From Anaerolineae bacterium (GTDB taxonomy: Bacteria; Chloroflexota; Anaerolineae; B4-G1; SLSP01), in assembly GCA_034437255.1 (NCBI GenBank), contig DAOTUH010000126.1, positions 19,198-83,197 of the forward strand: a DNA stretch of 64,000 nucleotides, given 5' to 3'. Positions 2,351 through 21,700 of the stretch are shown here, in pieces. A program made the translations under genes and the position numbers. The number at the start of each line of letters is the position of its first letter. The first letter of the stretch is position 1. The notes below the pieces were generated by a model. That model ran no database searches. It saw only the letters and a list, made by a program, of their open reading frames with translations, and was not told the origin of the DNA.

Positions 2351-2440
2351 AGACGCCGCCGACCAAAGGTCGGACAGTCGCCAAGATTTTAAATTTGTCC
2401 TTACTTTTCTGAATATTAAAGCCAGCCTAGATCAATAAAA

Positions 2441-2513
2441 TCTACCATCTTATGAATTTCCTTTGCGTTCTTGGCGCCTTTGCGTGAGGTTGATGGTTAT
2501 TTCAGTGAAGTCA
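2441..2513 (+). repeat. Conserved ~72-nt element R, copy 1, containing mini-ORF MNFLCVLGAFA (2452-2487)
   Basis: About 93% identical to 58141-58213. Outer inverted repeat ACCATC...GATGGT. Internal direct repeat CCTTTGCGT x2. Confidence 0.5.
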
Positions 2514-2556
2514 AAGGGCAAAGGTAAAAACCGGATTATTGAGAAGCCTATGAATC

Positions 2557-3351: not shown

Positions 3352-3374
3352 GTTTTCCTCTCTTTCTCTACCTT

Positions 3375-4772: not shown

Positions 4773-4954
4773 TTACCTCTCATATCGGCCCGCGCGTAAC
4801 CCGCGCCGCGTCTACGAAGCAGGCACCTACACAACCAGACGCTCACCGGACGCGCCGCGCCACCGCTTCCAGCCGCGTTAGCGGCGTCGGGTTGATGCGC
4901 TGGTTAGGTGCCTCCGCTCTGCATACCAACCTCTTTACCCAAAAATCCTTGTTT

Positions 4955-6229: not shown

Positions 6230-6299
6230 CGGCGTTTCCTTGGATATTCTACGTCAACCATTCATAGATTTAACAGCAAAGGGCACCTAACCAGCACGT

Positions 6300-6450
6300 G
6301 TGTGGCTCGGTGGGACACCGGCCACAGCGCATCGTGTCAGCATTCGCACTGTGTGGCTCGGTGGGACACCGGCCACAGCGTATCGTGTTAGCATTCGCAC
6401 TGTGTGGCTCGGTGGGACACCGGCCAAAGCGTATCGTGTCAACATCCAGT
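6300..6450. repeat. Tandem direct repeat, 3 x 51 bp
   Basis: GTGTGGCTCGGTGGGACACCGGCCACAGCG(C/T)ATCGTGT(C/T)AGCATTCGCACT repeated three times with 1-2 mismatches. Contains the hairpin core CGGTGGGACACCG. Confidence 0.9.
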
Positions 6451-6452
6451 AC

Positions 6453-6794
6453 CTACCACTTGGGCGCTTCTTCGATTTGATAGCTGGCGCCGCAGTAGGG
6501 GCACTCGACAAAAATCGCGCCGGCGCGCACCGAGAGATTATCTTTATCCAGAGTTCCGCCGCAGTTTCGGCACGTCATCTCTTCCAGCTTCACGTCGCCG
6601 CTAAGATCGATCTTCTGCACGATGGTCTTCTCCTCGTGCTTGGGCCGCACGCGGGTGAGATAAATCATCACGCCGGCCCCGGCCATCAGGATCACGCCGA
6701 CGATCACGCGGATAAACTGACCTTGCGCGCCGACGACGAACATCACGCCAAAGAACGCCAACACCGCTGCGATGATATAGGTCACAATCTCCAT
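6453..6794 (-). CDS. Small membrane protein with C-terminal zinc-ribbon
   Basis: TM helix IVTYIIAAVLAFFGVMFVVGA and a second hydrophobic segment. CRNCGG...CPYCG zinc ribbon. ACGGAGGTT SD before the ATG at 6794. The track's longer start at 6836 is judged less likely. Confidence 0.65.
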   Translation of the reverse strand: MEIVTYIIAAVLAFFGVMFVVGAQGQFIRVIVGVILMAGAGVMIYLTRVRPKHEEKTIVQKIDLSGDVKLEEMTCRNCGGTLDKDNLSVRAGAIFVECPYCGASYQIEEAPKW

Positions 6795-6910
6795 GGAACC
6801 TCCGTTGTGAATGGATGGTTTGCGCAATACTCTCATTATAGTCTGATTTGGACAGCAGCATAGCGGCGGGACATGAAAGGTCTTCTCAGGAAACGGTGAC
6901 GATCAAGTTG

Positions 6911-6919
6911 TGCTATACT
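6911..6919 (+). promoter_or_regulatory. Possible extended -10 promoter element (TGcTATACT) upstream of 6970 gene
   Basis: TGnTATACT lies 50 nt upstream of the GTG start. No convincing -35. Confidence 0.25.
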
Positions 6920-6969
6920 GGTAGAAACGATGAGCAGTCCATGTCCATCGACCTAAGGAGGCAACTTCT

Positions 6970-8169
6970 GTGAGACGCCCGATACGATTTCTATGGCTGT
7001 TTTTGATGTTCACGACGTTGGCTTGTGTCTTGCTTGCGACGGAGGAGCCCACGACCACACCGACCGAGGAGGAAGCCAACACGGCGGGAGCGCCTACGTC
7101 CACCGACACCTCCGATCCGGCAATGACACAAACGCCAACTGCAACGACTGAAGGCGACGAAACGAGGAACGGCGACACACCCACCTCAACACCGGCAGGC
7201 TGCACGTTAGGCGCGAGCTTCATCGAGGACGTGACCATTCCCGATGACACTGCGCTGGAACCCGGCGCGGACTTCCGCAAGACGTGGCGGCTGCGCAACT
7301 CCGGAAGTTGCAATTGGGAAGCGGGCACGCGGTTGGTTTTCGTGAGCGGGGAGACGCTGAACGGGCCAGACAGCGTGATCGTCCCGGCGGCTGCGGCCGG
7401 ATCGACGGCCGAGGTCAGCGTGGAGCTCACCGCGCCCACGACGCCGGGCACCTATCGCAGCGAGTGGCGGCTGCAAGCGCCGGACGGCACCCGGTTCGGC
7501 ACCACCATCTACGTGCAGATCATCGTGCCGGAGCCACCGACGGTCACGCCCACGCCGACCGATACGCCTGCCCCGATCACTGCAACGCCGACGCCCACGT
7601 CAACGCCAGACGAGACAGGCTGCACCACACCCTACGATCCCGCTTTCACCGCGACGATGGACTACGCCGCCGACCTGGGCTTTGACATTGGATGTGCCGA
7701 GAGCTTTGGATACGATATGTCCGGTGCTGTGCAGATTTTCTGGGCCAACGTCGACGAGCCTAATCCCCATTTGCACTACCGGACGCTGATGATCTGGAAC
7801 AAGCCCTACAAGCAGGGCGAGATTTACTACGTCACCGTCTCCGAGACAACACCCGTGCAGCCCTTCCACGCCAGCTACGACACCTGGGAAGAGGAAATGC
7901 CCGAAGTCCCGCCGGACTGCGCCGACATGCCGGTGCCCGACGGTTACCTCATCCCTATTCGAGGTTTCGGCAAGCTCTGGTGTGAGCAGGAGCTCTGGAC
8001 AACTATCGGCTGGCCCAGTGAGTCGGAGGTTGCCATCACGTTTCGCGTCCAGCAGACCGAACACGGCCGGTTGATGCGCTTTGGCGATCCGCTGATCAAC
8101 ACCTATGTTGTGGCGTGGGATTATGATACGAACGAGGCACTGGTGCACATGAATCCGATTGAGCCGTAG
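6970..8169 (+). CDS. Secreted Thr/Pro-rich protein with central Ig-like (NBR1/CARDB-like) domain
   Basis: AAGGAGG SD then a GTG start. Hydrophobic signal with LACVL lipobox-like motif. Long T/P/E-rich linkers. CNWEAG...TRLVFVSG motif. Confidence 0.7.
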   Translation: MRRPIRFLWLFLMFTTLACVLLATEEPTTTPTEEEANTAGAPTSTDTSDPAMTQTPTATTEGDETRNGDTPTSTPAGCTLGASFIEDVTIPDDTALEPGADFRKTWRLRNSGSCNWEAGTRLVFVSGETLNGPDSVIVPAAAAGSTAEVSVELTAPTTPGTYRSEWRLQAPDGTRFGTTIYVQIIVPEPPTVTPTPTDTPAPITATPTPTSTPDETGCTTPYDPAFTATMDYAADLGFDIGCAESFGYDMSGAVQIFWANVDEPNPHLHYRTLMIWNKPYKQGEIYYVTVSETTPVQPFHASYDTWEEEMPEVPPDCADMPVPDGYLIPIRGFGKLWCEQELWTTIGWPSESEVAITFRVQQTEHGRLMRFGDPLINTYVVAWDYDTNEALVHMNPIEP

Positions 8170-8261
8170 GCGAAAAACGTTAGAACGTTTGAACGTTCAA
8201 ACGCTCTAACGTCTCCGCTTGTGTTCTCGGGTTTCGTGTACCAGCTCGTTATCGTGCGCGG

Positions 8262-11156
8262 CTAGCGTGGTCGATGTCCCGTCAATCTCTCTCGCAGTTC
8301 GATAAACGCTTCGAGATCGCCTTCGGCGAGGAGGCGGGCCTGGTCGAGCCACGTGGACGTGTAACGGACGCGAATGCCGCTCTCGCGGAGTATAGCTTGA
8401 ATCTCCTCCGGCGTCAGGGCCGCCAGCTGCTCGAAGAGCGCGATGCCGGCCGCGTTGAGCAGCTTCTCGCTCTTTGGCCCCAGCCCCCAGATGCGCTGGA
8501 GGTCGTCGGGCTCCGTCAGCTTGCGCTCTTGCACCGGCTCCGGCTTGGCTGCCGGCACAGCAAAGGAGATCGCCGCGGTCGGCGGCGTGGGCATGCGCCA
8601 GCGGTAATCGTGCTGCATGGCCTGCTTGAAATCCTCCTGGATGCCGGACTTATCGTGGATCTTCCACTGATCGCCCGTCCAGCGGTAAAGCAGCAGCCCA
8701 CGGATCTGTTGTGCATACGGCCGCATGTTCCAACCATCGATCTCCTCGTAGATTTTGCGCACCCAGCCGATGTTAGCGTTGATCCACCCCTGCGACGCCG
8801 GATTGTCGCACGTGGGCGCGTTGTCCGGGCGACAGACGTGATTCGTCTCGGTGATGTAGACGGGCAGATCCTTCCACTTGTAGGGAATGCGCTCCATAAA
8901 CTGTCGATAGGTCTGGAAATCGAAGTAGTGATCGTTCAACAACGGATCGCCAAAGGTTTCCAGATGCGTGATGGCTTCCAGCGACGGTCCGTGCGTGTAG
9001 GCGTGCAGGATGAAACCATCCAGCGAATCGATGTTGTCCATCATCTTCTGGAAGTAATCTAAGGGCCGCCAGCGCACATTGCCCAGCAGGGGCATGGACG
9101 AAGAGTTGTAAGGGTCGACGGCGCCAGGACAGACCAAGGCGTTGGGCAGCACGTCCTTGATGGCAGCGTAGATCTTGTTGAAGGCCTCCGCGTAAAGCTC
9201 TGCCGTGATGTGTTGCTTAGGATGATGCAGCCCGCCCGGATGCTCGCTGGGATTGTTTTGCTCGTTGCCAATCTGGATCGTCCAGGTGTAGTCATCCGGC
9301 GAGAGATCGTCCCGCTTGAGGTAAATCTCAACCCAGCGCGCGCACGCCTGCGCGAACTCATCGTAGTGGCGGGATTCGGGCAGCGTGCCGCCGGGATGGT
9401 AGCCATGATTGAGACGTACGATGACACCGTAGTCCTTCTCCATCCAATCCTGGACGCGGTTGCGGATATCCTGATTCAGACCGACGTCCTGGGGACGCCG
9501 CCGTACTACCTCTGTGAAGAAGACCCAGCCCTTCTTCCCCCCGGCGTTGAAGAGATTGCGGATCGGGTCCCGCGTGTAGTGGTCGTCGCTAAGCTGGGCA
9601 GCATGCATGCCGAAGATGTGGGGCGAGAGCCCGCGATCTAGCCAGCCGTCGCGCGCCTGTACCCGCTGATCTTTCTGCTCGGGACGACGCACATACCAGG
9701 CCGCCACATGTCCCTCTCTCCGCGAGGGCGTCCGAACCTTGATCCATTTCTCTTGCTCGCCGATTTTGTTCCCCGTGACTGTAGGATCTTCCAGAGAGCG
9801 CAACACGGCACCATGCGGCACCCACCAGACCTGGACATGATCCGTTCCCGGCCCGCTGCGCACCCGCAGCCCGTACTCGGGGCTTTCCACGACAACGAAT
9901 CGAGCGGGCTCGCCGGACGGCGTCGGTTTTGGCTCAACCTCGGTCTCGAGCTTGAGATACCAGGCCGCCGTGTAGCCGCTCTCATCTTCCGCCGTCTGAA
10001 CGTGTAGCCACTCGTCGTGCTCGCCGATTTTGCGCCGCACCTGGTCGGCCGGTTCTAGCGCTTTAATGATCGCACCATCGGGCATCTGGGCGACGATGTC
10101 GTGCTCCGTGCCCGGCCCGCTGCGGAGCTTGAGCGGCATCTCTGGGCTTTCTACCACTAACAACAGCGTAGGCGTCGGCTTCTCCTTCTCCGGCAGCCGC
10201 AGATACCACGCCGCCGTGTAGCCTTGTTTCCCGTCCGGTGTCTTGACCTTGAGCCATTCCCCGTACTCGCCAATCTTACGGCGCACGTCGATGTCCGGCT
10301 CCAACGCCTTGAGCACCGTCCCGTCGGGCATCTCGGCGACAATCTCATGTTCCGTGTCCGGCCCGCTGCGCAACTTGAGGGGGGTCTCGGGGCTCTGGAC
10401 GACGACGGAGAGCGTCGGCTCCGGCTGTTCCTCCTCCGGCAGTTTCAGATACCAGGCAGCCACGTACCCGTTCTGACCGTTGTGCAGCCGCACCCACAGC
10501 CACTGACCGTGCTGCCCGACCTTCTTGAGCGTGACATCCACCTTTTCCAACGAACCCAGGACAGTCTCATGATCCACGCGCCCAACTTGCTCGCTGCCCA
10601 CGTAAGGCCTGGCCCGCACGTTCAGGAACCCAACCTCCGGGCTGTGCACTTGCACCTTCATGGTGGGCTTAGCGGGTGGTTCCGGCTCCACGCCACCCTC
10701 CGAAAACGGCAACAGATAGGGGCGAGGATTCACGATATCGTAGGGAAAATAGGTCTCGTTGCTTCCCGTCGCGCCATCTTTCTTAAGTGTCAGGTGAAGA
10801 TGCGCACCAAAGGAGTTCCCACTATTCCCGCCCAACCCGATCAGCTGCCCGGCCCGCACGGCCTGGCCTTCGATGACGACGACGGAGGAAAGATGCGCGT
10901 AGACGCTGGTGAAGCCATTGCCGTGCTGAACGCGAACCTGATTGCCGTAGGGTCTCTTGTTGGGATTGGAGTTACCATCAAGACTAACGCGACTCACGAA
11001 GCCATCGGCGACGGCATAGACCTCACTTCCTTCCGGCGCCTTGAAATCCAGCCCCTCGTGTCCAGGCAACCCAAACTTCTGGTAGAACTCCGGTCGGACA
11101 CCGAATTCCTGGGTGATCCTGTTAAACTCTGTCGGCCAACGCATACGAAAACTCAT
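8262..11156 (-). CDS. Multidomain cell-wall hydrolase: M23 peptidase + 4 SH3b-like repeats + clan GH-A glycoside hydrolase + C-terminal helix-hairpin-helix
   Basis: HEGLDF...HLHLT is an M23 signature. Four near-identical ~95-aa repeats end in AAWYLKLP. IGNEQN and YITETN resemble GH-A acid/base and nucleophile motifs. IWGLGPKSEKLLNAAGIALFEQLAALTPEEI is HhH-like. GGAGGG SD before the ATG at 11156. No signal peptide. Confidence 0.8.
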   Translation of the reverse strand: MSFRMRWPTEFNRITQEFGVRPEFYQKFGLPGHEGLDFKAPEGSEVYAVADGFVSRVSLDGNSNPNKRPYGNQVRVQHGNGFTSVYAHLSSVVVIEGQAVRAGQLIGLGGNSGNSFGAHLHLTLKKDGATGSNETYFPYDIVNPRPYLLPFSEGGVEPEPPAKPTMKVQVHSPEVGFLNVRARPYVGSEQVGRVDHETVLGSLEKVDVTLKKVGQHGQWLWVRLHNGQNGYVAAWYLKLPEEEQPEPTLSVVVQSPETPLKLRSGPDTEHEIVAEMPDGTVLKALEPDIDVRRKIGEYGEWLKVKTPDGKQGYTAAWYLRLPEKEKPTPTLLLVVESPEMPLKLRSGPGTEHDIVAQMPDGAIIKALEPADQVRRKIGEHDEWLHVQTAEDESGYTAAWYLKLETEVEPKPTPSGEPARFVVVESPEYGLRVRSGPGTDHVQVWWVPHGAVLRSLEDPTVTGNKIGEQEKWIKVRTPSRREGHVAAWYVRRPEQKDQRVQARDGWLDRGLSPHIFGMHAAQLSDDHYTRDPIRNLFNAGGKKGWVFFTEVVRRRPQDVGLNQDIRNRVQDWMEKDYGVIVRLNHGYHPGGTLPESRHYDEFAQACARWVEIYLKRDDLSPDDYTWTIQIGNEQNNPSEHPGGLHHPKQHITAELYAEAFNKIYAAIKDVLPNALVCPGAVDPYNSSSMPLLGNVRWRPLDYFQKMMDNIDSLDGFILHAYTHGPSLEAITHLETFGDPLLNDHYFDFQTYRQFMERIPYKWKDLPVYITETNHVCRPDNAPTCDNPASQGWINANIGWVRKIYEEIDGWNMRPYAQQIRGLLLYRWTGDQWKIHDKSGIQEDFKQAMQHDYRWRMPTPPTAAISFAVPAAKPEPVQERKLTEPDDLQRIWGLGPKSEKLLNAAGIALFEQLAALTPEEIQAILRESGIRVRYTSTWLDQARLLAEGDLEAFIELRERLTGHRPR

Positions 11157-11244
11157 AATGAAACCCTCCTTGCCTCGTGGATTTAACGTCCCTTTTGGCA
11201 TCTTCCGGGATACTTGGAGCATCCCGGAAGATCAGTGAAAACCC

Positions 11245-11631
11245 TTACTCCTGGGCCTGCTGCACAGCTTTGAGCGCCGCGGCTGCGGCATTCCCCACGG
11301 ATTCGATCATCTTGGCACGGTTGTCCATGGCCTGCTGGACGGTCTGGGTGTGGATGTCCCAGACGCCCCTATCCACCGTGCCGTCCTCGGCCTGGGGTAT
11401 GCAGATATCGATGTCGCCGTCCAGTCGGACCTGGGTGAAGGCGCGTAGCTCGATCTTGCCCTCGCCGGCGGCGCCCGCTACGTCCGGTCGCTCAGCGACG
11501 AAAATCTGCACTTGATCGTGGGGCGTGGTGTACGTTCGCACGTCCAGGACCGCCACGTCGCTGACGAAGGACTCCACCTTTTCCGCCAGGTCACTCGCGA
11601 ACTTCCGAACCGCTTCCTGTAAGTTAGCCAT
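11245..11631 (-). CDS. Hypothetical 128-aa protein, homologous to the C-terminal domain of the adjacent caspase-like peptidase
   Basis: Shared motifs are TYTT, DGDID and W.IH...V..A...RA with residues ~560-650 of the 12405-14375 product. Lies 12 nt downstream of the upstream gene in the same operon. Confidence 0.6.
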   Translation of the reverse strand: MANLQEAVRKFASDLAEKVESFVSDVAVLDVRTYTTPHDQVQIFVAERPDVAGAAGEGKIELRAFTQVRLDGDIDICIPQAEDGTVDRGVWDIHTQTVQQAMDNRAKMIESVGNAAAAALKAVQQAQE

Positions 11632-11643
11632 TGTCCTCTCCTT

Positions 11644-12408
11644 TTAGATTAGAGTTTCGATATCGGGCCACGAAGCCCGTAGTTCTTTCAATACGTCTCG
11701 CACAAACCGCCACGTGGCGGGTAGCAACAGGACCTGTCCTCCGGGAACCGAGGCTTTCACCGCCAACCCGGCGGCGCCCGTCGCCACCACAGAGACGAGA
11801 CGCGTCAGCGCGATGCGCGAGGCCAGCGCCAGATGCACTGCCTGCCGGTGTTCCGCTATCGAGGACGGCGTGAGCGCCGGCGCCCAGGTCGTGCCGAAGT
11901 CGCCCGTCCAGCCCACCTCGGTGCGACCGACGAACCGACCGCCCACGGTGGTCTCGATGCGGACGTAGTGCGAGACCATCTCGCGCACCCGCTCCACAAA
12001 GCTGTTCCATTGTTTGTAGGCGTCGCTGTCCATGACGCGCTCTGATTCACCCGGCCCAAACGCCACCGGCCGCTGCAGCGTGGTGACGCTTTGCCGCAGC
12101 GCTTGCCGAGGATCGGTCAGACGATCACCCGTGCCAAAGGCCACCGGCTCTGACGGGTCAAACCGTGCCAGTTCCCGCTCGGCGTGCGCCAGATCACGCT
12201 GGCTCAGTTCCAGCGCTTTCGCCCGCGCTGCCAACTCGGTCTGCGCCGCCTCTGGGTTTTCTGACAGGTCGACGCGCCAGGTCAGCACGTCGGGTGCTGC
12301 CTCGCCGGCGCCGAAGGAGACGGCCTCCGCTTCGACGGCCCAGATGCCCAGCGGATCTTCGGCCTCCGACCGCGAGACCCCGGTCAGCGTGAATCCGGCG
12401 CCGGTCAT
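11644..12408 (-). CDS. Hypothetical 254-aa protein, translationally coupled (ATGA overlap) to caspase-like gene
   Basis: ATG at 12408 overlaps the TGA of the upstream gene. Internal repeat PVAFGTGDRL / PVAFGPGESE. No recognised domain. Confidence 0.5.
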   Translation of the reverse strand: MTGAGFTLTGVSRSEAEDPLGIWAVEAEAVSFGAGEAAPDVLTWRVDLSENPEAAQTELAARAKALELSQRDLAHAERELARFDPSEPVAFGTGDRLTDPRQALRQSVTTLQRPVAFGPGESERVMDSDAYKQWNSFVERVREMVSHYVRIETTVGGRFVGRTEVGWTGDFGTTWAPALTPSSIAEHRQAVHLALASRIALTRLVSVVATGAAGLAVKASVPGGQVLLLPATWRFVRDVLKELRASWPDIETLI

Positions 12409-14375
12409 ACAGGCTTCAGGCTCTTGAGCAGATTCGTCGCCATCTCCGCCATGGCCTCCAGGAACTGCGCCCGGTTGATCTGGGCCTCCTTGACCATGTC
12501 GGCGTGAATCTTCCACAGCACCTCGTCGACACCGCCGTCCGCTTTCTCCGGCACATAGCTCTGGATGTCCCCGTCAAACTCGATACGCGTCAACGCACGC
12601 GGCGTCGCCGCAGCCTCTGCATCTTTGATGACAGCTGCGAGATCCTCAGTGGTGTAAGTTTCCACCTCCAGCGTGGGGATCTCCTCGGCGGCTTTGCCCA
12701 GCGCCTCCGCCAGTTGATCGGTGAAGGTGCGCAGCGAGTCGGTCAGCCCGGCGAACTGATCCCGCAGGCCGAAGGCGACGGCGTAGTCCTCGGCTCCTGA
12801 TGGCTCTGGTGCGAGCGCCGTGGTCGGTTCGCTTTCTTCCGAGGGTGCTGAGGCGGCTTCGCTCTCTGCTTCTGCCAGCTTCTCTTTTGTGCTCTCGCTG
12901 ATAGTGATGGTGGGACGCTCCGTCTGCGGGCTCTCTTCGTCCTCCGCCACCGAGAGGCGCACCGCCGGATCGCCGATGATGACGTAGCCGCGCGCGTCGT
13001 TGTTCGCCGTCCACATACCCGCTAGCTTCACGTCGTCGCGCCGCTTGTCGAACTCGTTGACCTCCTCGATCTCGCTGGCCAGCACCACGGAGAGCTCGGC
13101 GTGGCGCTCGTTGAACCACTCCAGAGCCGCGCCCACGGGATAACCGGCCATCAGCTGATCCAGCGTGTCTTGAAAGACCTGTAACTGGCGCCCTGCCCCG
13201 CTCCACAGGAAAGAGTATCCCCAGGCGCGCTCGACGTGGCCCACGACGGCCAACGCGCCGCCCTTGGGATGGCCCAGGAGCCGTTGCGGCAACCGCGCGA
13301 TAAAGGCGTGGGGCGCGATCTCGGCCGGCTCATCAAAGGCCCTGTGCGCAAACTGATCCAGCTTGGGCGTTCCCGCACCGTAGCAGGCGAAGAAGAAAGC
13401 CATGGTGCCGGCCAGCCGCGCGTTCGAGGCGACGTCATCGGCCGAGAAGTAGAACGCCTCAGGAATCGGATCGTGCCACTCACGGGGGCCAGGCCAATCC
13501 TCACAGAGCAGCGCGCCCTGGTGCTTGAGCTGGCGCGGGTCTCCTTTGGGAAAGCCCATCCCGTGACTGGCCGAGAAGAACAGTACCGGCGTCCCGTCGC
13601 CGCCCAACAGCGTTTCGAGACGCGCCTTGGTCGCCTGCCCGATGAACTGGCTATCCCACGACGGCTGTTTGTCCGACATGGCCTCGACCAGGGGACGCAC
13701 CAACTCCTTGGCACTCATCTCCGTCGCCCGGTCGTGCTGGTTCTTCACACCAAAGAATCGCGCGCGACGCGGCAGCCGTAAATCGCCGGTCTCCGCTGCC
13801 ACCACACTCTCCGCATACTGCGCGTACTCCTCGAGCGTGTCGAAGAAAATGCGCCCGACGGCATACTGCACGTCGAGCTGATACTGGAAGCGGTAGGGAA
13901 TCGTCTCTGGCCCGCCGACGATCAGCAGATAGTAGGGCACTTTGGCGGGATTGGCCGGCCCCGGCCCCATGTTGCGCGGATCGCGGCCCAAGAAATCCAA
14001 GTAGGAGTCGGCCGGCCGGTAGCCCGCCGCGCGCATGTACTCCTGATAGAATCGTTCGTCGTCCTGCGTGGCCTGCTCCTTGCGCAGATCCAACAGCGGC
14101 TTGAGGGCCTCACGGATCGCCGGGGCCCGTTCGTCCTTTGCTCCGAAAATTACGGCCCATCCCGTCTCCGCCAGGTTCGTCTGATCGGCATTGATGCCAA
14201 AATGTGGCTGCATGCTGTCATGGCGATTCTTCAACTCCCGGTAATACTCGTCATCTTTGCTCAAGGGCTCGCCCAGCGCGACCGACGCCACGTCCTCAGG
14301 CAGCATGGGCGGCGTCCAATACTTCCCGCTGGCACCATTGATACCATTGACGTAAAGCAGCTTCTCTTCATTCAT
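12405..14375 (-). CDS. Clan CD caspase/gingipain-like cysteine peptidase with extra C-terminal domain
   Basis: His motif LFFSASHGMGFP and Cys motif FFFACYGAGTP in the order and spacing typical of C14/C25 peptidases. ATG at 14375 overlaps the NTPase stop by 8 nt. Confidence 0.75.
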   Translation of the reverse strand: MNEEKLLYVNGINGASGKYWTPPMLPEDVASVALGEPLSKDDEYYRELKNRHDSMQPHFGINADQTNLAETGWAVIFGAKDERAPAIREALKPLLDLRKEQATQDDERFYQEYMRAAGYRPADSYLDFLGRDPRNMGPGPANPAKVPYYLLIVGGPETIPYRFQYQLDVQYAVGRIFFDTLEEYAQYAESVVAAETGDLRLPRRARFFGVKNQHDRATEMSAKELVRPLVEAMSDKQPSWDSQFIGQATKARLETLLGGDGTPVLFFSASHGMGFPKGDPRQLKHQGALLCEDWPGPREWHDPIPEAFYFSADDVASNARLAGTMAFFFACYGAGTPKLDQFAHRAFDEPAEIAPHAFIARLPQRLLGHPKGGALAVVGHVERAWGYSFLWSGAGRQLQVFQDTLDQLMAGYPVGAALEWFNERHAELSVVLASEIEEVNEFDKRRDDVKLAGMWTANNDARGYVIIGDPAVRLSVAEDEESPQTERPTITISESTKEKLAEAESEAASAPSEESEPTTALAPEPSGAEDYAVAFGLRDQFAGLTDSLRTFTDQLAEALGKAAEEIPTLEVETYTTEDLAAVIKDAEAAATPRALTRIEFDGDIQSYVPEKADGGVDEVLWKIHADMVKEAQINRAQFLEAMAEMATNLLKSLKPV

Positions 14376-17300
14376 AATTACTCTCCTCTGCGAATCCCTC
14401 CGCGTCCAAGTCCAACTCACTTTCCACGTACTGCCAGGATAAATCCAACACGTCCTCGAACCGTACCAGATACCGCCGTATGGTGCCATCCCTGGAACCG
14501 GAGGCCAGATAGTGGCCATCGGGGCTGAAGGCCAACGTGTACACGATGGGATCGGTATGCCCAGGAAGCACAGCCATCAACGTTGGCGCGCGGGCTGGGA
14601 ATCGATCCAACTTCCAGAGGCGCACGTGACTATCACGCGCCGCCGTCGCCAGGTACAGCCCGTCGGGTGAGAAAGCGACACCATAGACGAAGGCCGGATG
14701 CTTCAACGGCGCTACCACGGTCGTCATGGTCTGCATGCTCCAGAGGCGCGCCGTCTGGTCCCACGCGCCGGAGGCCAAATATTGGCCATCAGGGCTGAAG
14801 TCCAGGGCAGGCACGTAGTTGCTGTGCCCCGTCAGCGTGACCGCCATCGTGACGGAGAGGCCACGCTCGGTCTCTCGCACATCGAAGAGGTGGATGTTCC
14901 CACCCAGGTAGCCCAACGCCATCCGGTCCCCCTGAGGACTTAATGTCCCACCCCAGAGGCCGCCGCGCGGAATCGTCACGCGATGATCAAGCGTCCAATC
15001 CTCCGTCCGCCAGACAAAAGCCTGCCCGCCATTGGAGACAGTGAGGAGGAAGCGACCGTCCGGCGTGAAGAAGGCCCGCTCCACATCTGCACGGTGTCCT
15101 GTCAACGTGGCGATAAGCGCACCCGTGCCCGTGTCCCATACCCTCGCATTGTTATCCGTGGCGCAGGAGACCAGATATGCGCCGCTAGGACTATACACCA
15201 GGTCCCAGAGCTCACCGCCAAGATAGCCTTCGATCTCCCGGACCACGTTGCCGTGCACCTGGGACCAGATACGCACCTCTCCGCTCTTACTGGCCGAAGC
15301 GAGGAACGTGCCATCAGGGCTGTACGTCACCTTGCGCACCAAGTCGCTGTGTCCCGTGAGCGTCGAAAGACCGGCCTGCCGGGGGAAATCCCGGTCCCAG
15401 ATGCGCACCGTGTTGTCACCGGCGCCGGCAGCCACCCAGCGGTCATCCGGGCTGAAAGCAACGTCCAGCACTACGTTGCCCGGCCCCCTCAACACGCTGA
15501 TGGCGTGCTGGTTACGCGAGCCTACGTCCCATAGATGCACCGTCCGATCCCGCGAGCCGGAGAGCAGATAGCGCCCGTCGGCACTGAAGGCCAGGGTTCT
15601 CACCTCGGCGCTGTGCCCGACCAGTGTCAGAACGGCCTCACCTGTGTCGAGATCCCAGAGTCGAATCGTTTTATCGGCGGAGGCCGAGGCCAACAGCGGT
15701 TCCGTCGGGCTGAAAGCCACCGCTTCCACGGCTTCGGTATGGGCCGTCAGTTGGCGCGGCGGGCTGACCGACAGCAGGCTAGGACCTAGAGCCCGCAACT
15801 GCCAGAGCCAAACCGTCCCGTCGTAGCACGCCGCTGCCAGGGTGAATGGCTCTCCAGTAACCATGGCTTCGATAGGTGAAGCGGTGCCTGTGAACGCAAG
15901 ATCGGCCACGCGGCGCGGCAGCTCGTCCAGGGTGAGCAGCAGCTCCGGCACCAGCGTATCGCCCCGCCGGCCCAGGGACCAGATCCGTATCAGCCCCTCT
16001 TGATCAGGTGAGTAGACATCCCGCAGCGTTTCCCCATAATCCCCACCCGTGGCAAGATAGTAGCCCTGCGGGTCGAAGGCCACGGTGTAGATCTCATCGT
16101 ACATCCCATCCGGCGTTATGACGCGCAGGCTTTCTACCCACGTCTCGGCCTCTGTGTCCCAGATTTCCACGATGCCGCCGGTCTCTCCATCGTCGCCGCC
16201 GGTCGCCAGAAACCGTCCGTCGGGACTCAACGCAAGATCGTAAACGGCACCCCGCGTCGGGAGAGGGATTAGCGTTTTCACGTTCATGCGAGTGTCGATG
16301 CGTTGCACGCCGCCGGCGGGCAGTGCTGTATAGAGAAAGCGACCGGTCTCGTCATAGGCTACGCTATGCACTTGATCCATCAGGCCCCCATACACCGAGA
16401 CGGGATAATACTCCTGCACCGCCTGGCGCAGCATGATTTGGGCCTCGTAGGTATTGATCTCGCCCATCAGCGTCTGGCTGCTCTCCTGCCACCAGCCGCG
16501 CAGACTGGGCTGAGTCCCGGCGCGGGCCAACCGGATGCTCTGCTCCCGGTCGGTCTCCAACACCGAGCGTGCCTTGGCGGCCAACTCGCGGGAATAGGCC
16601 TGCAGGCCGTTACGCATGGCTATCCACGCCAGCAGGCTGACCACAACCAGCACCATCCCGGCGAAGACGGCGCCCACGAGACGCAAACGGCGTGCGCGGC
16701 GCTGCGCTTGATCGGCCCGGCGGCTGGCTTCCAAGAACTCCTCTTCGAAGGGCTCCAGCTGGTCGGGATGGACCTCGGCCCAGGCGAGCGCCTCCTCCAG
16801 CGTCGCGTCGAGGTACAGGAGCGCCGCGTCGTCGGTCTCCTTCCACCGCTTAGCCGTGGTGCGCAGCGGCGTCTGCCGCGCCGCCTCCCACGTGCGGTTC
16901 GACTGCCGGATGGGATCGATAAGCCGGTCGTGGACCAGCTCATACCAGCGGGCACCGGCGCGCAGGTCCGAGCGGATGAGGTGCCGGGCATCCAGCACAT
17001 CGACGGCGGTGTTGGGCAGACCGGCGGTCTCCTCCGGCCCGCGCATAGCCAGGCCGCGCGTTCCCACCGACGTGATAAGATGCTCGGCGGTCCAGCGACG
17101 CACCTGCCGTTCGGGCACCTCGGTCTCGGCGATGACGTGGGCGATGGCGCTCTCGTAGAAATCGACCAGGGCACGGTCAATATCGCCGTATTGCTGAACC
17201 TCGTTCCACTGGATCAGGTTGTCTTCCTGAGCCGGCAGGTTCGCCCACAGCCGCTGACAGACCACCTGCAGCTGCACCGGCTCGACGAAGCGCCCCAGCA

Positions 17301-18048
17301 CCTCAACCTCGTCGTCGCGCCCATACCGCTGCACCTTGCTGCGTCGCAGGTCGTCGACCAGGCGCTCGGCCACGCCCTCGTCGAAGGGAACGCCGGTCTG
17401 GGCCGCCGGCTTGCGGACGGCTTGGATGGCGCCCTCGACGCCCAGCCGCTCCATACGGAAGCGAGCGCGGAGCCGGCGGGGCAGCAGCGGCGCGTAGGGC
17501 TCGACTTCGGCAACGTAATCCTCCCGCATGGCAAAGACCACGCCCAACGTGGGCAGCGCGTCCAACGCCCCCTCAACCTGGACGAAGAAACTCTCGGCGT
17601 CCTGCCAGCGGTGGCGGTGCGCCGTAAAGAGCTCCTCGAACTGATCGACGATGAGCAGCGGCGGGCGGTCGTCATCGGGCAGATACGTCTGCAAGAAATC
17701 GAGCAGGGACTGTTCGCCCAGTGGCGCCGGCGGCTCGTCCTCGCCGACCAGCGAGAGCAGCACACTGAAGACGAAGACGTTGTCCACGTCCGCGTCGGTC
17801 AGGCCGGGCGGCAGATCGTTGGCGACGCGCACCACGGGCAGCACGTTGAAAAGCTCCTCCTCCAGCGCGAGGATGACCTCGGCGTTGAGCAATGACGTCT
17901 TGCCGGCGCCAGAGGGCGCGTAGAAGAGCACCACGCGCTCGGCCAGGATCAGGGAGAGCAAGTCGCGTGCCTCGCGGTTGCGCCCGAAGAAATTCTTGCG
18001 GTCGGCGCGCTCGTAGGGGCGGGGACCGACGTAGGGATTTCCTTTCAT
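14368..18048 (-). CDS. STAND-like (nSTAND1-like N-terminus) P-loop NTPase - single TM helix - WD40 beta-propeller
   Basis: The N-terminus NPYVGPRPYERADRKNFFGRNREARDLLSLI...LFYAPSGAGKTSLLNA shows an nSTAND-like signature. Hydrophobic helix LVGAVFAGMVLVVVSLLAWIAM near residue 480. At least 10 WD40 repeats (GHSAEVRTLAFSADGRYLLSGSRDRTVHLWD and others). Start ATG 18048 overlaps the upstream stop as ATGA. Confidence 0.85.
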   Translation of the reverse strand: MKGNPYVGPRPYERADRKNFFGRNREARDLLSLILAERVVLFYAPSGAGKTSLLNAEVILALEEELFNVLPVVRVANDLPPGLTDADVDNVFVFSVLLSLVGEDEPPAPLGEQSLLDFLQTYLPDDDRPPLLIVDQFEELFTAHRHRWQDAESFFVQVEGALDALPTLGVVFAMREDYVAEVEPYAPLLPRRLRARFRMERLGVEGAIQAVRKPAAQTGVPFDEGVAERLVDDLRRSKVQRYGRDDEVEVLGRFVEPVQLQVVCQRLWANLPAQEDNLIQWNEVQQYGDIDRALVDFYESAIAHVIAETEVPERQVRRWTAEHLITSVGTRGLAMRGPEETAGLPNTAVDVLDARHLIRSDLRAGARWYELVHDRLIDPIRQSNRTWEAARQTPLRTTAKRWKETDDAALLYLDATLEEALAWAEVHPDQLEPFEEEFLEASRRADQAQRRARRLRLVGAVFAGMVLVVVSLLAWIAMRNGLQAYSRELAAKARSVLETDREQSIRLARAGTQPSLRGWWQESSQTLMGEINTYEAQIMLRQAVQEYYPVSVYGGLMDQVHSVAYDETGRFLYTALPAGGVQRIDTRMNVKTLIPLPTRGAVYDLALSPDGRFLATGGDDGETGGIVEIWDTEAETWVESLRVITPDGMYDEIYTVAFDPQGYYLATGGDYGETLRDVYSPDQEGLIRIWSLGRRGDTLVPELLLTLDELPRRVADLAFTGTASPIEAMVTGEPFTLAAACYDGTVWLWQLRALGPSLLSVSPPRQLTAHTEAVEAVAFSPTEPLLASASADKTIRLWDLDTGEAVLTLVGHSAEVRTLAFSADGRYLLSGSRDRTVHLWDVGSRNQHAISVLRGPGNVVLDVAFSPDDRWVAAGAGDNTVRIWDRDFPRQAGLSTLTGHSDLVRKVTYSPDGTFLASASKSGEVRIWSQVHGNVVREIEGYLGGELWDLVYSPSGAYLVSCATDNNARVWDTGTGALIATLTGHRADVERAFFTPDGRFLLTVSNGGQAFVWRTEDWTLDHRVTIPRGGLWGGTLSPQGDRMALGYLGGNIHLFDVRETERGLSVTMAVTLTGHSNYVPALDFSPDGQYLASGAWDQTARLWSMQTMTTVVAPLKHPAFVYGVAFSPDGLYLATAARDSHVRLWKLDRFPARAPTLMAVLPGHTDPIVYTLAFSPDGHYLASGSRDGTIRRYLVRFEDVLDLSWQYVESELDLDAEGFAEESNYE

Positions 18049-20090
18049 CGTTGCGTCGCCTCCCACCGCTCGCGCAGCTCGGCCGTGAATTGATGTGTGC
18101 TACCCCAGAAGACGTTGATCTCAGCATCCTGGAAATACTGGCGCAGGAAGTGCTGCACGGCGCCTACGTCCTCCACCTTCCCACTGGCGCTGTCCAGTTG
18201 TACCGTGACGTGCTTGAAACGGTGTCGCTGATTGAGCGTGGTCACCAAGCCCCGCAGGATCACGCGAAACTCCCAATCGTAGAGGCTGTACCCGATGAAG
18301 AGCAGCGTGCTGTTAGCCAGCGCGCCCCGGATGTACGTGGGGATGCGCTCCATCTCCGCCGAGACCTTGACGAGGAAGTCGAGGTAGTGATCGGAGGTGA
18401 GCACCAGGGATTCCGGCACCTCGTCGTGACCGAAGAGATGGTAGACCAGCGGCGTGTCCGGCGTCGGCACGTAGTTGGGATCATCGGCAAAGCGGCTGGA
18501 GAGCCAATCCAGGTCGCGGTGCCAGGGGCAGATCTCGCGTTCAGCGTCTCGACCGCGCGCGGCTAGGGCCGCCGTCATGAAGTTATCGAGGTTGGTGGTG
18601 ACGTAGAGCGGCAAATTTAGATCTGCCAGCACCTCGTGCGGATCGTTAGGATCGTCACCGGCGATGCGCTGCCATTCCACTGCATCCACCAGATCCGACA
18701 CGCTCTCCGGCGGTTGGGATGGTTGCAATTCCTCCGGCAATCGCTCGTAGAAATGGTTCACCATGGTACTCAGCAGTTCGTAGCGGGGGAAATCCTCGCC
18801 CTGGCTGCTGGCGAGATACTGCGCCACCCACGGCAAGACGATGCGGTCGGCGAAGGGATAGGCGTGAAGTCGCGTCCACCCACCGGCGATTTCTCGGGGC
18901 AGGGGCAACCAGCGCCCATGCACTCTTGGCCCGATCACGGGGATGCACTTGCCGCGCTGGATCATACGCAGGAGTCCGGTCCAGAAGATCCGGGGATTCT
19001 GCCCACCCAGCACCGCGCCGCGCGCGTCGGCTTCGGCGCTCCACAGTTGGGCTGACTTGAGCCGCATAAAGAGCACGGGCACGGCAGCATCGGGGCGACC
19101 GGCGGAAAGCAACGTGCTCCGCGCCACGTTGAGCGCCACGTCCACCTGCCCGTCTTCAAGGAGTCGACAGTAGAACGTCGCGCTGAGCTTGCGGGCCGTC
19201 TCCACCGCCACAAAATCCTGCATGGCAACGACGGCGGGCACGCCGACGGCGACCAGCTTCGGCGCCAGTCCCCGGAAGGCGTCGCCGGTAGCCCGCTGCG
19301 CGCTCTGGCAGGCATTCAGAAAGATCAGGCGGGGTCGCACGTCCTGGCGCGCCAGCGTATGCACCAGCGCCTCGTCGGTAACGAGCTCCGTGGCGCCGTC
19401 CTCGTTCTGGAGAAAGAGCACGGCCCGCTCGCGCCGCCGGCTGTAGGCGCCGTGCCCCACGTAGTGCAGGATGTGATACCCTTCGCGCAACGCTGCTTCA
19501 AGCCGTTCCAGCGTGACGGGCGGCTCCAGAAAATCGAGGGCGATCTCGTCCTCGCTCATCTCTTCAAAAGCCGCCGTGAGCAGCGCGCGCTCGGTCTCCG
19601 TCTCCACCGGCGTCAGCTCGTAGGCCGATGCCAGATCACTGGGATTGGAGATGACCGCCAGCACACGAATGGGGCGTTCTTCGACGGCGCCGCCCCAAGG
19701 TAGCGAGACGGGCAGATAGCGCGAGAAGGGTGTCTTCGCCGTCGCCGAGAGCAGCGTCGTCCCGGTGTGGAGCAGTTCCCAGGGCAGCACGTGGAGCTCC
19801 GCCGCCTGCGCGTCGATGCGCAGCCTGATCCGGCGGCGTTCCGCTTGCCCGCGCACCTCGCTCCAGGCCTGGCGCAGCGCGTCGTCTTCTAGAAGCAAAT
19901 CGAGGAGCTGCTGCCCATCGGCTACGGGATCGCCGCTAGAGGTCCAGTTGGCCGCCTCCGCCGCCAGATAACCCCGGGGGAACTCCTGCTCTCCCTCAAG
20001 CGTGATCTCGACGGGATACCCTTGCTCTCGTCGGGGAAAGATGCGGACTTCCAAATCCGCGAATCCGTTCTTGGTGCCGGTTTCACGCAT
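18045..20090 (-). CDS. CHAT-domain protease fused to SIR2-like (SIR2_2-type) domain
   Basis: CHAT His/Cys dyad HYVGHG...LIFLNACQSA. C-terminal PLYVTTNLDNF...LLFIGYSLYDWEFRVIL matches SIR2_2-like motifs. ATG at 20090 with AAGGA SD preferred over the TTG at 20186. Confidence 0.8.
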   Translation of the reverse strand: MRETGTKNGFADLEVRIFPRREQGYPVEITLEGEQEFPRGYLAAEAANWTSSGDPVADGQQLLDLLLEDDALRQAWSEVRGQAERRRIRLRIDAQAAELHVLPWELLHTGTTLLSATAKTPFSRYLPVSLPWGGAVEERPIRVLAVISNPSDLASAYELTPVETETERALLTAAFEEMSEDEIALDFLEPPVTLERLEAALREGYHILHYVGHGAYSRRRERAVLFLQNEDGATELVTDEALVHTLARQDVRPRLIFLNACQSAQRATGDAFRGLAPKLVAVGVPAVVAMQDFVAVETARKLSATFYCRLLEDGQVDVALNVARSTLLSAGRPDAAVPVLFMRLKSAQLWSAEADARGAVLGGQNPRIFWTGLLRMIQRGKCIPVIGPRVHGRWLPLPREIAGGWTRLHAYPFADRIVLPWVAQYLASSQGEDFPRYELLSTMVNHFYERLPEELQPSQPPESVSDLVDAVEWQRIAGDDPNDPHEVLADLNLPLYVTTNLDNFMTAALAARGRDAEREICPWHRDLDWLSSRFADDPNYVPTPDTPLVYHLFGHDEVPESLVLTSDHYLDFLVKVSAEMERIPTYIRGALANSTLLFIGYSLYDWEFRVILRGLVTTLNQRHRFKHVTVQLDSASGKVEDVGAVQHFLRQYFQDAEINVFWGSTHQFTAELRERWEATQR

Positions 20091-20206
20091 GATCGTATCC
20101 TTGGCTATGGAAAATGCGCCACTTGAAGTGTGTCGGCCCAGATTCACCGAAGGTTCAAAAATAGTATAGCATAGATTTGAGGGCAAAACAATAGAGGTGT
20201 GGGAAG

Positions 20207-20262
20207 TGTTGCGTGTTGCGTATTGCGTGTTGCGTGTTGCGTGTTGCGTGTTGCGTGTTGCG
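20207..20262. repeat. Heptanucleotide microsatellite (TGTTGCG)x8, one unit TATTGCG
   Basis: Directly visible. Lies in the divergent intergenic region between the CHAT-SIR2 operon start and degV. Confidence 0.95.
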
Positions 20263-20386
20263 TGATGGTCTCTGTCGGGGTTTGACTTTGTAGGCGTACG
20301 ATGAGAGGATGCCGGGGCGGATGGGTGTCTTGAGTCTGGTGTGGAGTATAATAAGAATCGACAATAAGAGATCCAGGAAGGAGATT

Positions 20387-21250
20387 ATGAGCAGTTCAAA
20401 GGTAGCACTGGTCACCGATAGCACCTGCGATATTCCCGTCGAGATGGTAGAGCGGTACGAGATTGTCGTCATTCCGGCGTACGTCATCTGGGGTGAGGAG
20501 CAATTCAAGGACCGTGTGGATCTGCATGCCAGGGAGTTCTATCAACGTTTGCAGAGCGATTCGGTCTATCCGTCGTCGTCTCATCCTACGCCCGGCGATT
20601 TCTTCAAGCTTTACCAGCGCCTGATTGACGAGGGCGCCGAGGAGATCGTGGTCGTCACTGTGAGTAGTGCCATGAGCGGCACGTACAACGCCGCCAAACA
20701 GGCCGGCGGGATGGTTGAGTCTCCCGTCCACGTGGTGGATTCGAAGGGACCGTCTATGTCTCTGGGCTGGCAGGTGCTGGCGGCGGCCCGGGCGCGCGAG
20801 GCCGGCGGCGGGGCGGAGGCCATGGTCGCCGCGGCCGAGGACGCGCGCTCGCGCATGGCCCAGCTGGTCTACATGGAGTCCATCGAGTATCTCCACAAGG
20901 GCGGGCGCATCGGCAACGCGGTGAATCTACTGGGGACGCTGCTCAAAATCAAGCCCGTGGTGTACATCGATCACGAGACCGGCATGGTGAACGTGGAGAC
21001 CGCCGCGCGCACGCGCAAGCGCGGCATCAACACGCTCTACAAGGGCTTCTTCAAGCGGCTGGACACGACGAAGCCGCTCCACGTCGCCGTGCTCCATGGC
21101 GACGTGCCGGAGGACGCGCAGGCGCTGGCGGCGCGCATCCGCGAGGAACTCAACCCTAAGGAACTGGTCATCAACATCACCGGGCCCGTGCTGGGAATCA
21201 ACACCGGCCCGGAGGCGCTGGCGCTGGCGGGATATACGGAAGCGACATAG
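20387..21250 (+). CDS. DegV family fatty-acid-binding protein
   Basis: KVALVTDSTCDIP N-terminus and overall DegV/EDD fold signature. GGAAGGAG SD before the ATG at 20387. Confidence 0.85.
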   Translation: MSSSKVALVTDSTCDIPVEMVERYEIVVIPAYVIWGEEQFKDRVDLHAREFYQRLQSDSVYPSSSHPTPGDFFKLYQRLIDEGAEEIVVVTVSSAMSGTYNAAKQAGGMVESPVHVVDSKGPSMSLGWQVLAAARAREAGGGAEAMVAAAEDARSRMAQLVYMESIEYLHKGGRIGNAVNLLGTLLKIKPVVYIDHETGMVNVETAARTRKRGINTLYKGFFKRLDTTKPLHVAVLHGDVPEDAQALAARIREELNPKELVINITGPVLGINTGPEALALAGYTEAT

Positions 21251-21346
21251 GCTCGTAGTCAGCGACAAAGCGTGAGCGGAGTCGCGTCTTGAGACGGCGC
21301 TCCGGCTGCGCCTGCGTGCCTGACTACAAACTTACGGGAGGTTTCT

Positions 21347-21700
21347 ATGACGACCAAAGTCATCGTACACGTCGATCTGGATGACGTCACGCGCGTGAAA
21401 AGCGCGTTAGCCAACATCGAGAATCTGCTGGCTGCCGTAAATCCACGTGAGGCCGACGTGGTACTGTTAGCCAACGGGCAAGCGGTGAAGTTTCTGCAGA
21501 CTGAGACCAGCGTAGGCTACGCGGATCGGCTCCAGCGGCTGACGCGGTTGGGCGTGCGCGTCCTCGTCTGCCGGAACTCGCTGGAGCATCTGGAGATCGC
21601 GCCGGAACGCCTGCTTGACGTCTGCCAGATCGTGCCCGCCGGCATTGTGACGCTGGCCCGTCTGCAGAACGAGGAAGAATTCGGTTACGTCAAGCCATGA
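21347..21700 (+). CDS. DsrE/DsrF-like (YchN-like) family protein
   Basis: 117 aa, MTTKVIVHVDLDD...VLLANGQAV, typical size and pattern. GGGAGG SD. Confidence 0.55.
   Translation: MTTKVIVHVDLDDVTRVKSALANIENLLAAVNPREADVVLLANGQAVKFLQTETSVGYADRLQRLTRLGVRVLVCRNSLEHLEIAPERLLDVCQIVPAGIVTLARLQNEEEFGYVKP

Follow-up and report, generated by a model that had tools for sequence, protein, structure and literature searches.

What is the function of an operon in which a CHAT protease joined to a SIR2-like domain is encoded together with a STAND NTPase carrying WD40 repeats, a gingipain-fold protease and two small partner proteins? Such an operon lies in a 64,000-nucleotide (nt) stretch of an Anaerolineae bacterium contig (DAOTUH010000126.1), hereafter "the window", i.e., the whole stretch analyzed. 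It comprises five genes (A to E) and probably a sixth (F), and to judge from their sequences it most likely encodes a previously undescribed trigger-and-self-destruct system, serving either defence or programmed death. All five open reading frames (ORFs), A to E, were verified by a six-frame ORF listing and by reading the junctions directly: A at 18045-20090 (681 amino acids (aa) from an ATG start), B at 14368-18051 (1227 aa), C at 12405-14375 (656 aa), D at 11644-12408 (254 aa) and E at 11245-11631 (128 aa), on the minus strand, as are all window features below unless stated otherwise. An initial annotation of this DNA had placed the end of A at 20186, the TTG belonging to the longest ORF that can be drawn there, while the ATG-start gene ends at 20090. 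Its claim of an operon of translationally coupled genes is borne out, i.e., A/B and C/D meet in ATGA overlaps, an 8-nt overlap (ATGAATGA) joins the stop of B to the start of C, and D and E are separated by a 12-nt spacer that holds AAGGAGAGG. The motifs that it quoted were also all found (HYVGHG at A209, LNACQSA at A258, SHGMG and FACYGAG in C). Beyond the operon itself, the CHAT domain, the NTPase-transmembrane-WD40 protein, the clan-CD protease and the assignment to conflict systems have held up, but an NADase effector has not, and four elements described below were absent from that account: gene F, a domain common to C, D and E, the degenerate SIR2 site, and the modularity of A-B versus C-D-E.

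The N-terminal half of A is a CHAT domain (PF12770, aa 58-351, nt 19038-19919), recognized by Pfam at 7.8e-30 (104.7 bits against a cut-off of 24), with the predicted His/Cys dyad present at H213 (followed by Gly) and C261; the corresponding xHG and [AS]C[QE]S motifs are retained in all aligned homologues. The C-terminal part is a SIR2-like domain (SIR2_2, aa 495-635, nt 18186-18608; Pfam 1.1e-20, 74.6 bits against 24.5) that is homologous to the SIR2 domain of Thoeris ThsA (profile E value of 2e-13 against ThsA structures; the ThsA SIR2 region of PADLOC matches A at 4e-11, over profile positions 89-223 only). This domain had been taken for an effector that hydrolyses nicotinamide adenine dinucleotide (an NADase), an assignment that was to fall if catalytic residues proved not to be conserved, and this is what we see. 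N500 is retained, but F553 takes the position of the canonical catalytic His, and G387-P-R389 stands in the place of GxG in the loop. The catalytic His of ThsA (vYKMHG) falls against this Phe (vYHLFG) in single-sequence and profile alignments alike; the Phe is found in nearly all of 20-24 homologues, i.e., is nearly invariant, while the catalytic Asn (of TTN) is missing in 7 of 23 and the loop is GPR, as in the window, GPW or GHR within the window's clade. SIR2 catalytic positions are those hit in mutant structures of ThsA, DSR2 (H171A) and KomC (H146N) in the PDB, and A does not carry the full set of NADase features (the His that is H152 in ThsA, H171 in DSR2 and H146 in KomC, the Asn, and GxG). 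Thus, with Phe for His, a variable Asn and GPR for GxG, canonical NADase activity of A, and with it NAD+ depletion, appears unlikely. At least 90% of homologues keep a His at H551, two residues upstream of F553, so that a shifted catalytic site stays conceivable. Most likely, the domain serves to dock A onto B or to bind a nucleotide; it occupies the place at which other variants fuse CHAT straight to nSTAND1. A match to the SIR2_2 hidden Markov model should not, by itself, be annotated as NADase activity.

Protein B starts with an nSTAND1 NTPase (PF20703, aa 6-406, nt 16834-18036; Pfam 6.8e-36, 125.1 bits against 27.1), whose Walker A (S47-GAGKT-S53, generally SGAGK[ST]S) and Walker B (D136-QFEE, generally DQxEE) motifs are invariant in 29 homologues, and ends in WD40 repeats (aa ~560-1215, nt ~14407-16374; Pfam 4.3e-107, 10 repeats) of a length sufficient for two propellers. 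A single, strongly hydrophobic helix (aa ~457-479, nt ~16615-16683; mean Kyte-Doolittle value of 2.56 in a 19-residue window) comes after RRADQAQRRARRLR and separates the two, and Pfam and hydropathy therefore agree on the architecture that had been read from the letters. This transmembrane helix follows the NTPase in 28 of the 29 homologues, and Lys and Arg together are richer on its NTPase-side flank in 25 of them (7 versus 2 in the window), an excess suggesting that the NTPase lies inside and the WD40 repeats outside. We thus predict a single-pass protein with a cytoplasmic NTPase and an extracytoplasmic WD40 region.

The clan-CD protease assigned to the third gene is also upheld. C carries a gingipain-fold (C25-like) protease at aa 1 to ~475 (nt 12951-14375), in which H271 (SHGMGFP) and C331 (FACYGAGTP) are invariant in 118 sequences. 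Both the catalytic fold and the His/Cys dyad of C25 are present; PF01364 scores 19.4 bits on C itself, under the gathering cut-off of 23, while many homologues have precomputed PF01364 matches and RefSeq calls the plasmid homologues C25 family. No N-terminal hydrophobic segment or signal peptide is found in C (top hydropathy window 0.96), which argues for a cytosolic gingipain-fold protease. A disordered linker (aa ~476-543; pLDDT, the predicted local distance difference test, < 50 at 514-545) bearing AVAFGL at 532-537 leads into a C-terminal domain (aa 544-656, nt 12408-12746) of a helix, three strands and a long helix (544-651), here termed alpha-beta3-alpha. More than 6,503 significant relatives of C were obtained among 8,000 scored candidates, and the protease is 53-60% identical across phyla. 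Profile searches of PDB sequences with C, D and E returned nothing below E 0.06.

This C-terminal domain is what ties the three downstream genes together. E is a free-standing copy of it (BLASTP 2e-18; hhalign 99.8%, E 1e-27), residue 1 of E aligning with residue 541 of C, such that E starts where the domain starts in C; no Pfam family was found in E among 27 homologues, and it has no hydrophobic helix. The predicted model of D (pLDDT 85.3; predicted template modelling score 0.83) consists of a small N-terminal sheet, a helical bundle, an alpha-beta3-alpha-like region (aa ~129-219) and a terminal helix. The E profile aligns at D 129-219 (hhalign E 1.1e-4, probability 56%) and the order of elements in the D model is the same, so that D probably holds a third, divergent copy of the domain. 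Neither D nor E matches a Pfam or NCBIfam family, and a Foldseek search of D against viral structures gave no match. A profile search of 1.84 billion representatives located the domain in 554 of them, always C-terminal and only either free-standing or after one or two C25-like peptidase domains, for which reason we rejected a promiscuous adaptor of the effector-associated domain (EAD) type and consider it specific to this system. The shared domain is new, and D is a protein without a fold relative. A second link between C and D is a V-S/A-F/Y motif, often followed by G, which is conserved at three loop positions in D (aa 30-32, 89-91 and 115-117, to 119) and occurs once in the linker of C (aa 533-537), a few residues before the shared domain. 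Its F/Y is conserved at 93-97%, and in the window [VI][SAD][FY]G is found once in C and three times in D and is absent from A, B, E and F. E starts exactly where a cut after the motif of C would leave the shared domain. This is suggestive of a protease cleavage or docking site at V-S/A-F/Y(-G-L), and goes no further than that.

Gene F (8262-11156) would encode 964 aa from an ATG at 11156 that follows AAGGAGG, the longest ORF starting at 11222. The protein has an M23 peptidase domain with HxxxD and HxH present (Pfam 2e-25), four SH3b domains (SH3_3) and a ~450-aa glycoside hydrolase (GH)-like region, with no signal peptide evident. The same gene follows E in three other loci (L005, L007 and L008), whereas five distant five-gene loci have a protein of C39_2-like and SH3b domains, without a signal peptide, immediately upstream of A, and L093 has a C39_2 plus muramidase protein directly 3' of B. 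In the flanks of ~160 loci, 12 of 13 wall-hydrolase-like ORFs are the immediate same-strand neighbour of the system, and those abutting it are of four types, i.e., M23+SH3b+GH-like, C39_2-like+SH3b, C39_2+muramidase, and muramidase alone (window 8262-11156; L005 13181-16156; L008 13638-16562; L054 2291-3814; L070 2378-3892; L074 1362-3566; L081 1885-3630; L033 2508-4010; L093 5901-7817; L088 1-1266; L067 3-4408). None of the N-termini inspected (window, L005, L008, L033, L054, L070, L074, L081 and L093) shows a signal peptide. A constant position with a changing catalytic domain suggests a functional linkage in a subset of the systems, including that of the window, and F is probably the sixth gene of the operon. 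The 88-nt spacer between E and F contains a perfect 12-bp inverted repeat (AUCUUCCGGGAU ... AUCCCGGAAGAU, 11200-11232) with no T-run after it; the fold energy of the spacer is -32.1 kcal/mol (z -3.3), and the hairpin is preserved in L005, where two pairs are altered on both sides. It may serve transcription attenuation within the operon or mRNA stabilization. A terminator-like hairpin with a T-run (8183-8198, consensus scan), 64 nt past the stop of F, is a possible end of the transcription unit, but counts in the promoter and terminator scan were not above those in shuffled sequence, which makes this hairpin weak evidence. An Rfam scan of the whole window gave no matches.

Does this arrangement persist elsewhere? 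We examined the neighbourhoods of C in 79 genome loci, with denominators that differ according to the flanking sequence available. The synteny check that had been suggested for the five genes found their full order kept in 16 other genomes, at 30-56% protein identity, and the arrangement is therefore not due to chance. Median identities to the window in these 16 loci are 56% for the C protease, 41% for the NTPase, 40% for the SIR2-like domain, 36.5% for CHAT, 34% for E, 33% for D and 30% for WD40, i.e., the five genes diverge in parallel, with WD40 the fastest and the C protease the slowest. D follows a full-length C in 53 of 57 loci with enough downstream sequence and E in 41 of 57, while neither is seen in any of the 12 loci where C lacks its C-terminal domain. 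Among 37 loci with 6.5 kb on both sides of C, a CHAT gene occurs in 30 (less than 10 kb from C), nSTAND1 in 22 and the SIR2-like domain in 17. A reverse test on metagenome contigs, anchored on the SIR2-like domain, placed nSTAND1 directly downstream of it in 44 of 45 loci and CHAT upstream in 33 of 51. As A-B and C-D-E are each also seen without the other, we regard them as separable modules that are often joined and can work apart.

Variants of the system keep CHAT, nSTAND1 and the C25-like protease and exchange the sensor. CHAT and nSTAND1 are directly fused, with no SIR2-like domain, in Nostoc variants, and the recovered sensor combinations include CHAT-nSTAND1-CHASE2 (Nostoc, L035), CHAT-nSTAND1-FGE-sulfatase (L073), CHAT-nSTAND1-WD40 (L076), nSTAND1-DUF4337 (L003) and nSTAND1-TPR (L138), CHASE2 being an extracytoplasmic sensor domain. 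The Nostoc sp. locus (L035, NZ_JBALDD010000008.1, 2305-17574) encodes a two-partner secretion (TPS)-domain protein, TPR-CHAT, C, D, CHAT-nSTAND1-CHASE2 and DUF928, so that E is absent and a second CHAT protein present. In L138 (1720-12809), a SIR2-like and nSTAND1-TPR pair without CHAT lies directly 3' of phage-tail-like genes of the extracellular contractile injection system (eCIS) kind (Baseplate_J, DUF6519), and an eCIS_core gene (19353-21395) is located near the system in L003. Short forms of C, without the shared domain, D or E, adjoin CHAT-nSTAND1 proteins, including on Nostoc and Sinorhizobium plasmids (L073 8627-9961; L076 8532-9899; L165 7657-8973, Nostoc sp. MS1 plasmid; L166 7521-8849, Sinorhizobium plasmid). 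In all four of these loci, a same-strand gene for a hypothetical protein of 438-456 aa precedes the short C; a Pfam scan of one copy, that of L076, gave no matches, and in L003 (compare 12071-13387) a full-length C is followed by a 438-aa protein. This protein may be an alternative partner for C.

C is present in at least 587 GTDB species genomes, and among the matches listed these are mostly Chloroflexota (Anaerolineae, Chloroflexia, Thermoflexales, Ardenticatenales, Thermomicrobiales). Outside this phylum, C was found in Nostoc, Calothrix, Tolypothrix, Pantanalinema, Acidobacteria, Gemmatales, Desulfobacteraceae and Syntrophobacteraceae, as well as on plasmids of Nostoc, Planktothrix and Sinorhizobium, where transposases, WYL and PD-(D/E)XK nuclease genes are neighbours. 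One metagenome-assembled genome (MAG) carries two copies (L049, L069). Anaerolineae, Chloroflexia and Nostocales are filamentous or multicellular groups.

How, then, might such an operon work? We favor, with a probability of about 0.5, a system in which B is a transmembrane STAND receptor, A a CHAT initiator, C-D-E a latent executioner and F an accessory, which together bring about proteolytic death or lysis gated by nucleoside triphosphate (NTP). B would act as a transmembrane counterpart of Apaf-1 or of NOD-like receptors (NLRs), with a ligand binding outside and its NTPase domains oligomerizing inside. A, its dedicated partner, would be docked through a non-catalytic SIR2 fold, and oligomerization of B would bring the CHAT domains together and activate them. 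Meanwhile, C could be kept latent in a complex with D and E through their common alpha-beta3-alpha domain, until the CHAT protease, or C itself, cuts the V-S-F/Y-G motifs (one in the C linker, three in D), releasing the executioner protease, D, or both. The last step in this genome would be breakdown of the wall by F, the endolysin-like M23-SH3b hydrolase. Taken to its full extent, the scheme would be a bacterial "extrinsic death pathway", in which an NLR-like transmembrane receptor builds an apoptosome-like platform on the inner membrane face, a CHAT initiator frees the gingipain-fold executioner from a D/E inhibitor complex by V-S-F/Y-G cleavage, endolysin autolysis follows in some lineages, and a SIR2 fold has been recycled as a non-catalytic adaptor; candidate signals would be, e.g., phage adsorption, wall damage or the surface of a neighbour. 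As a complete package this is speculative and we think it unlikely to hold. If the favored scheme is true, a STAND/NLR-type switch would sense from outside the cell and an initiator protease would act on an executioner protease in bacteria. To our knowledge, trigger binding by the Avs and NACHT sensors characterized in bacteria takes place in the cytoplasm. The scale is considerable (the C family has more than 6,500 protein clusters and is present in at least 587 species genomes), the parts added are one new protein domain and one protein, D, without a fold relative, and the idea can be tested through variants found in culturable Nostoc, Calothrix and Planktothrix as well as on a Sinorhizobium plasmid.

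Several observations weigh against this scheme. In 7 of 37 loci C-D-E has no CHAT gene less than 10 kb away, in 12 of 17 metagenome loci A-B has no C (C being found in 5 of 17), and SIR2-like plus nSTAND1 pairs exist without CHAT. The homology of D to E is based on the modest hhalign score (56%) and the matching secondary-structure order, and D matched no known family or fold relative. No route by which F could cross the membrane is evident. Which protease cuts which substrate, and that the outcome is lethal, are proposed from the architecture and by analogy with the apoptosome and Craspase. No defence island was seen around the system in the window, where the neighbours are metabolic, and no relatives of C were found in 2.9 million IMG/VR viral contigs; the immunity label thus rests on domain content, patchy and plasmid distribution and sensor swapping, and not on island context.

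Other explanations have to be weighed against these data. The STAND sensor could free both a CHAT protease and a SIR2 NADase as effectors and kill by NAD+ depletion, as do Thoeris ThsA, DSR and Avs5. The domain scores and the conserved H551 speak for it, as do the two-gene loci without CHAT, in which the SIR2-like protein is the only evident effector, a hint that it retains an activity of its own. Yet the essential His of ThsA, DSR2 and KomC is replaced by a nearly invariant Phe in the A family, the Asn and GxG are unreliable as described, and Nostoc variants do without the SIR2-like domain altogether, so we consider this improbable. It is similarly doubtful, though not to the same degree, that the operon has no role in immunity and serves non-lethal or developmental signalling in filamentous bacteria, an envelope-facing receptor eliciting proteolysis and wall remodelling for filament breakage, necridium-type death or the repair of envelope stress. 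A sensor predicted to be extracytoplasmic, linked peptidoglycan hydrolase genes, housekeeping neighbours in the window, the lack of viral copies, the unusual conservation of the C protease, the dominance of Anaerolineae, Chloroflexia and Nostocales and a CHAT domain resembling that of HetF (at the domain level only) would all fit. Against it stand the patchy occurrence across phyla, the plasmid copies beside mobile and nuclease genes even in unicellular Sinorhizobium, the interchangeable sensor domains, the two copies in one MAG and the fast evolution of WD40, all of them typical of conflict systems.

Finally, A-B and C-D-E might be independent systems that happen to be adjacent, with F an unrelated neighbour. 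Each module does occur alone and F is present in a minority of loci only, but the overlap of the B stop with the C start, a five-gene order maintained down to ~30% identity, the frequent proximity of CHAT genes to C, the short-C variants beside CHAT-nSTAND1 genes in cyanobacteria and on plasmids, and the same-strand contact of nearly all hydrolase genes where these are found make mere adjacency highly improbable.

Elsewhere in the window, a second STAND-like signalling protein of 1415 aa is encoded on the plus strand (58510-62757), with two adenylate/guanylate cyclase domains, AAA_16 and MalT-like TPR repeats. On the minus strand, radical-SAM/SPASM proteins (995-2350 and 3375-4772) lie beside a GT28/UDPGT-type glycosyltransferase (4955-6229), and, from the sequences, 995-6229 could be a peptide-maturation cluster. 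A plus-strand ORF at 6970-8169 converges on the end of F; its product combines a hydrophobic segment at the N-terminus with a low-complexity region rich in Thr and Pro and an immunoglobulin (Ig)-like domain (N_BRCA1_IG).

The proposal that no named defence system corresponds to this operon agrees with PADLOC, which returned partial domain matches only (the SIR2 part of ThsA, the CHAT part of SAVED_CHAT, and HEAT-ARM for WD40, with none for C, D, E or F), and we rejected assignment to any such system on these grounds; a search of NCBIfam added nothing decisive. A literature search for the combination of CHAT, SIR2, WD40, STAND and gingipain or C25 found no paper in the searched library describing the system, the protease family or its partners. 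In comparison with the gingipains RgpB and Kgp (MEROPS C25), C is 12-13% identical only, has no signal peptide, propeptide, Ig-like domain or C-terminal domain of the type IX secretion system, and appears to be cytosolic, with the new alpha-beta3-alpha domain at its C-terminus. No gasdermin-fold pore former was found next to the protease, and we therefore set aside a bacterial gasdermin system. F and its counterparts resemble phage endolysins (M23 or CHAP/amidase plus SH3b) in combining a wall-cleaving domain with SH3b and lacking a signal peptide, but their genes are chromosomal, have no recognizable holin and are tied to a STAND/protease system rather than to a lysis cassette.

Thoeris ThsA shares the SIR2_2 fold, but there is no TIR gene for ThsB here, no SLOG or transmembrane domain on the SIR2 protein, and the equivalent of H152 is Phe; with no TIR or SLOG match in the six proteins, Thoeris was rejected. 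Avs/AVAST systems (Avs5, SIR2-STAND) and SAMD9 (a variant SIR2-STAND protein; PMC5445408) likewise carry a SIR2-type domain just N-terminal to STAND (in our operon the two are on adjoining genes), and they too have a repeat sensor at the C-terminus. In contrast to Avs, the NTPase belongs to the nSTAND1 clade, the sensor is predicted to be extracytoplasmic and is not a cytosolic TPR that binds phage proteins, and the SIR2 catalytic His is missing; PADLOC gave no Avs match, the effector is a separate protein, and a transmembrane helix with WD40 replaces the TPR sensor, so this assignment was also discarded. Craspase (type III-E, in which the TPR-CHAT protein Csx29 cleaves Csx30) and SAVED-CHAT offer a parallel to the cleavage proposed here, i.e., a CHAT protease switched by a sensor would cleave a small partner from the same operon and release an effector, but no CRISPR, SAVED or cyclic-nucleotide component is present and the partners are unrelated in sequence and fold. 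EACC1-caspase systems (Kaur et al. 2020) also have a caspase-superfamily protease near the membrane, sometimes with nSTAND1 and a transmembrane segment, and a small constant partner; D and E match no family and lack the single conserved transmembrane helix that defines EACC1, and as the NCBIfam model "caspase, EACC1-associated" scores 16.5 bits against a cut-off of 140, this was rejected as well.

The nearest relatives are the bacterial Apaf-1-like proteins (PMC12803255) and, among multicellular bacteria, the caspase/CHAT-STAND-WD40 conflict systems described by Kaur et al. in 2020 (PMC7159879) and in 2021 (PMC8195603, the paper that defined nSTAND1). Neither PMC7159879 nor PMC8195603 mentions C25, gingipain or a CHAT-SIR2 fusion, and no Pfam match to an EAD or Death-like coupling domain was obtained. 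These systems share with the operon the STAND NTPase, the clan-CD protease and the WD40 sensor, swap sensors and effectors as it does, and are likewise enriched in Chloroflexota and Nostocales. Here, in contrast, a degenerate SIR2-like domain bridges protease and NTPase, which are encoded as separate polypeptides, a transmembrane helix is predicted to put the WD40 sensor outside, and a second, gingipain-fold protease with two partners sharing an undescribed domain is present, with linked wall-hydrolase genes. The class of NTP-dependent conflict systems named in the initial annotation suits the operon, in which an NTPase switch is paired with caspase-type effectors and a sensor that varies, and whose patchy distribution is enriched in multicellular groups; the operon fits as a variant within the NTP-dependent, caspase-containing conflict systems of multicellular bacteria.

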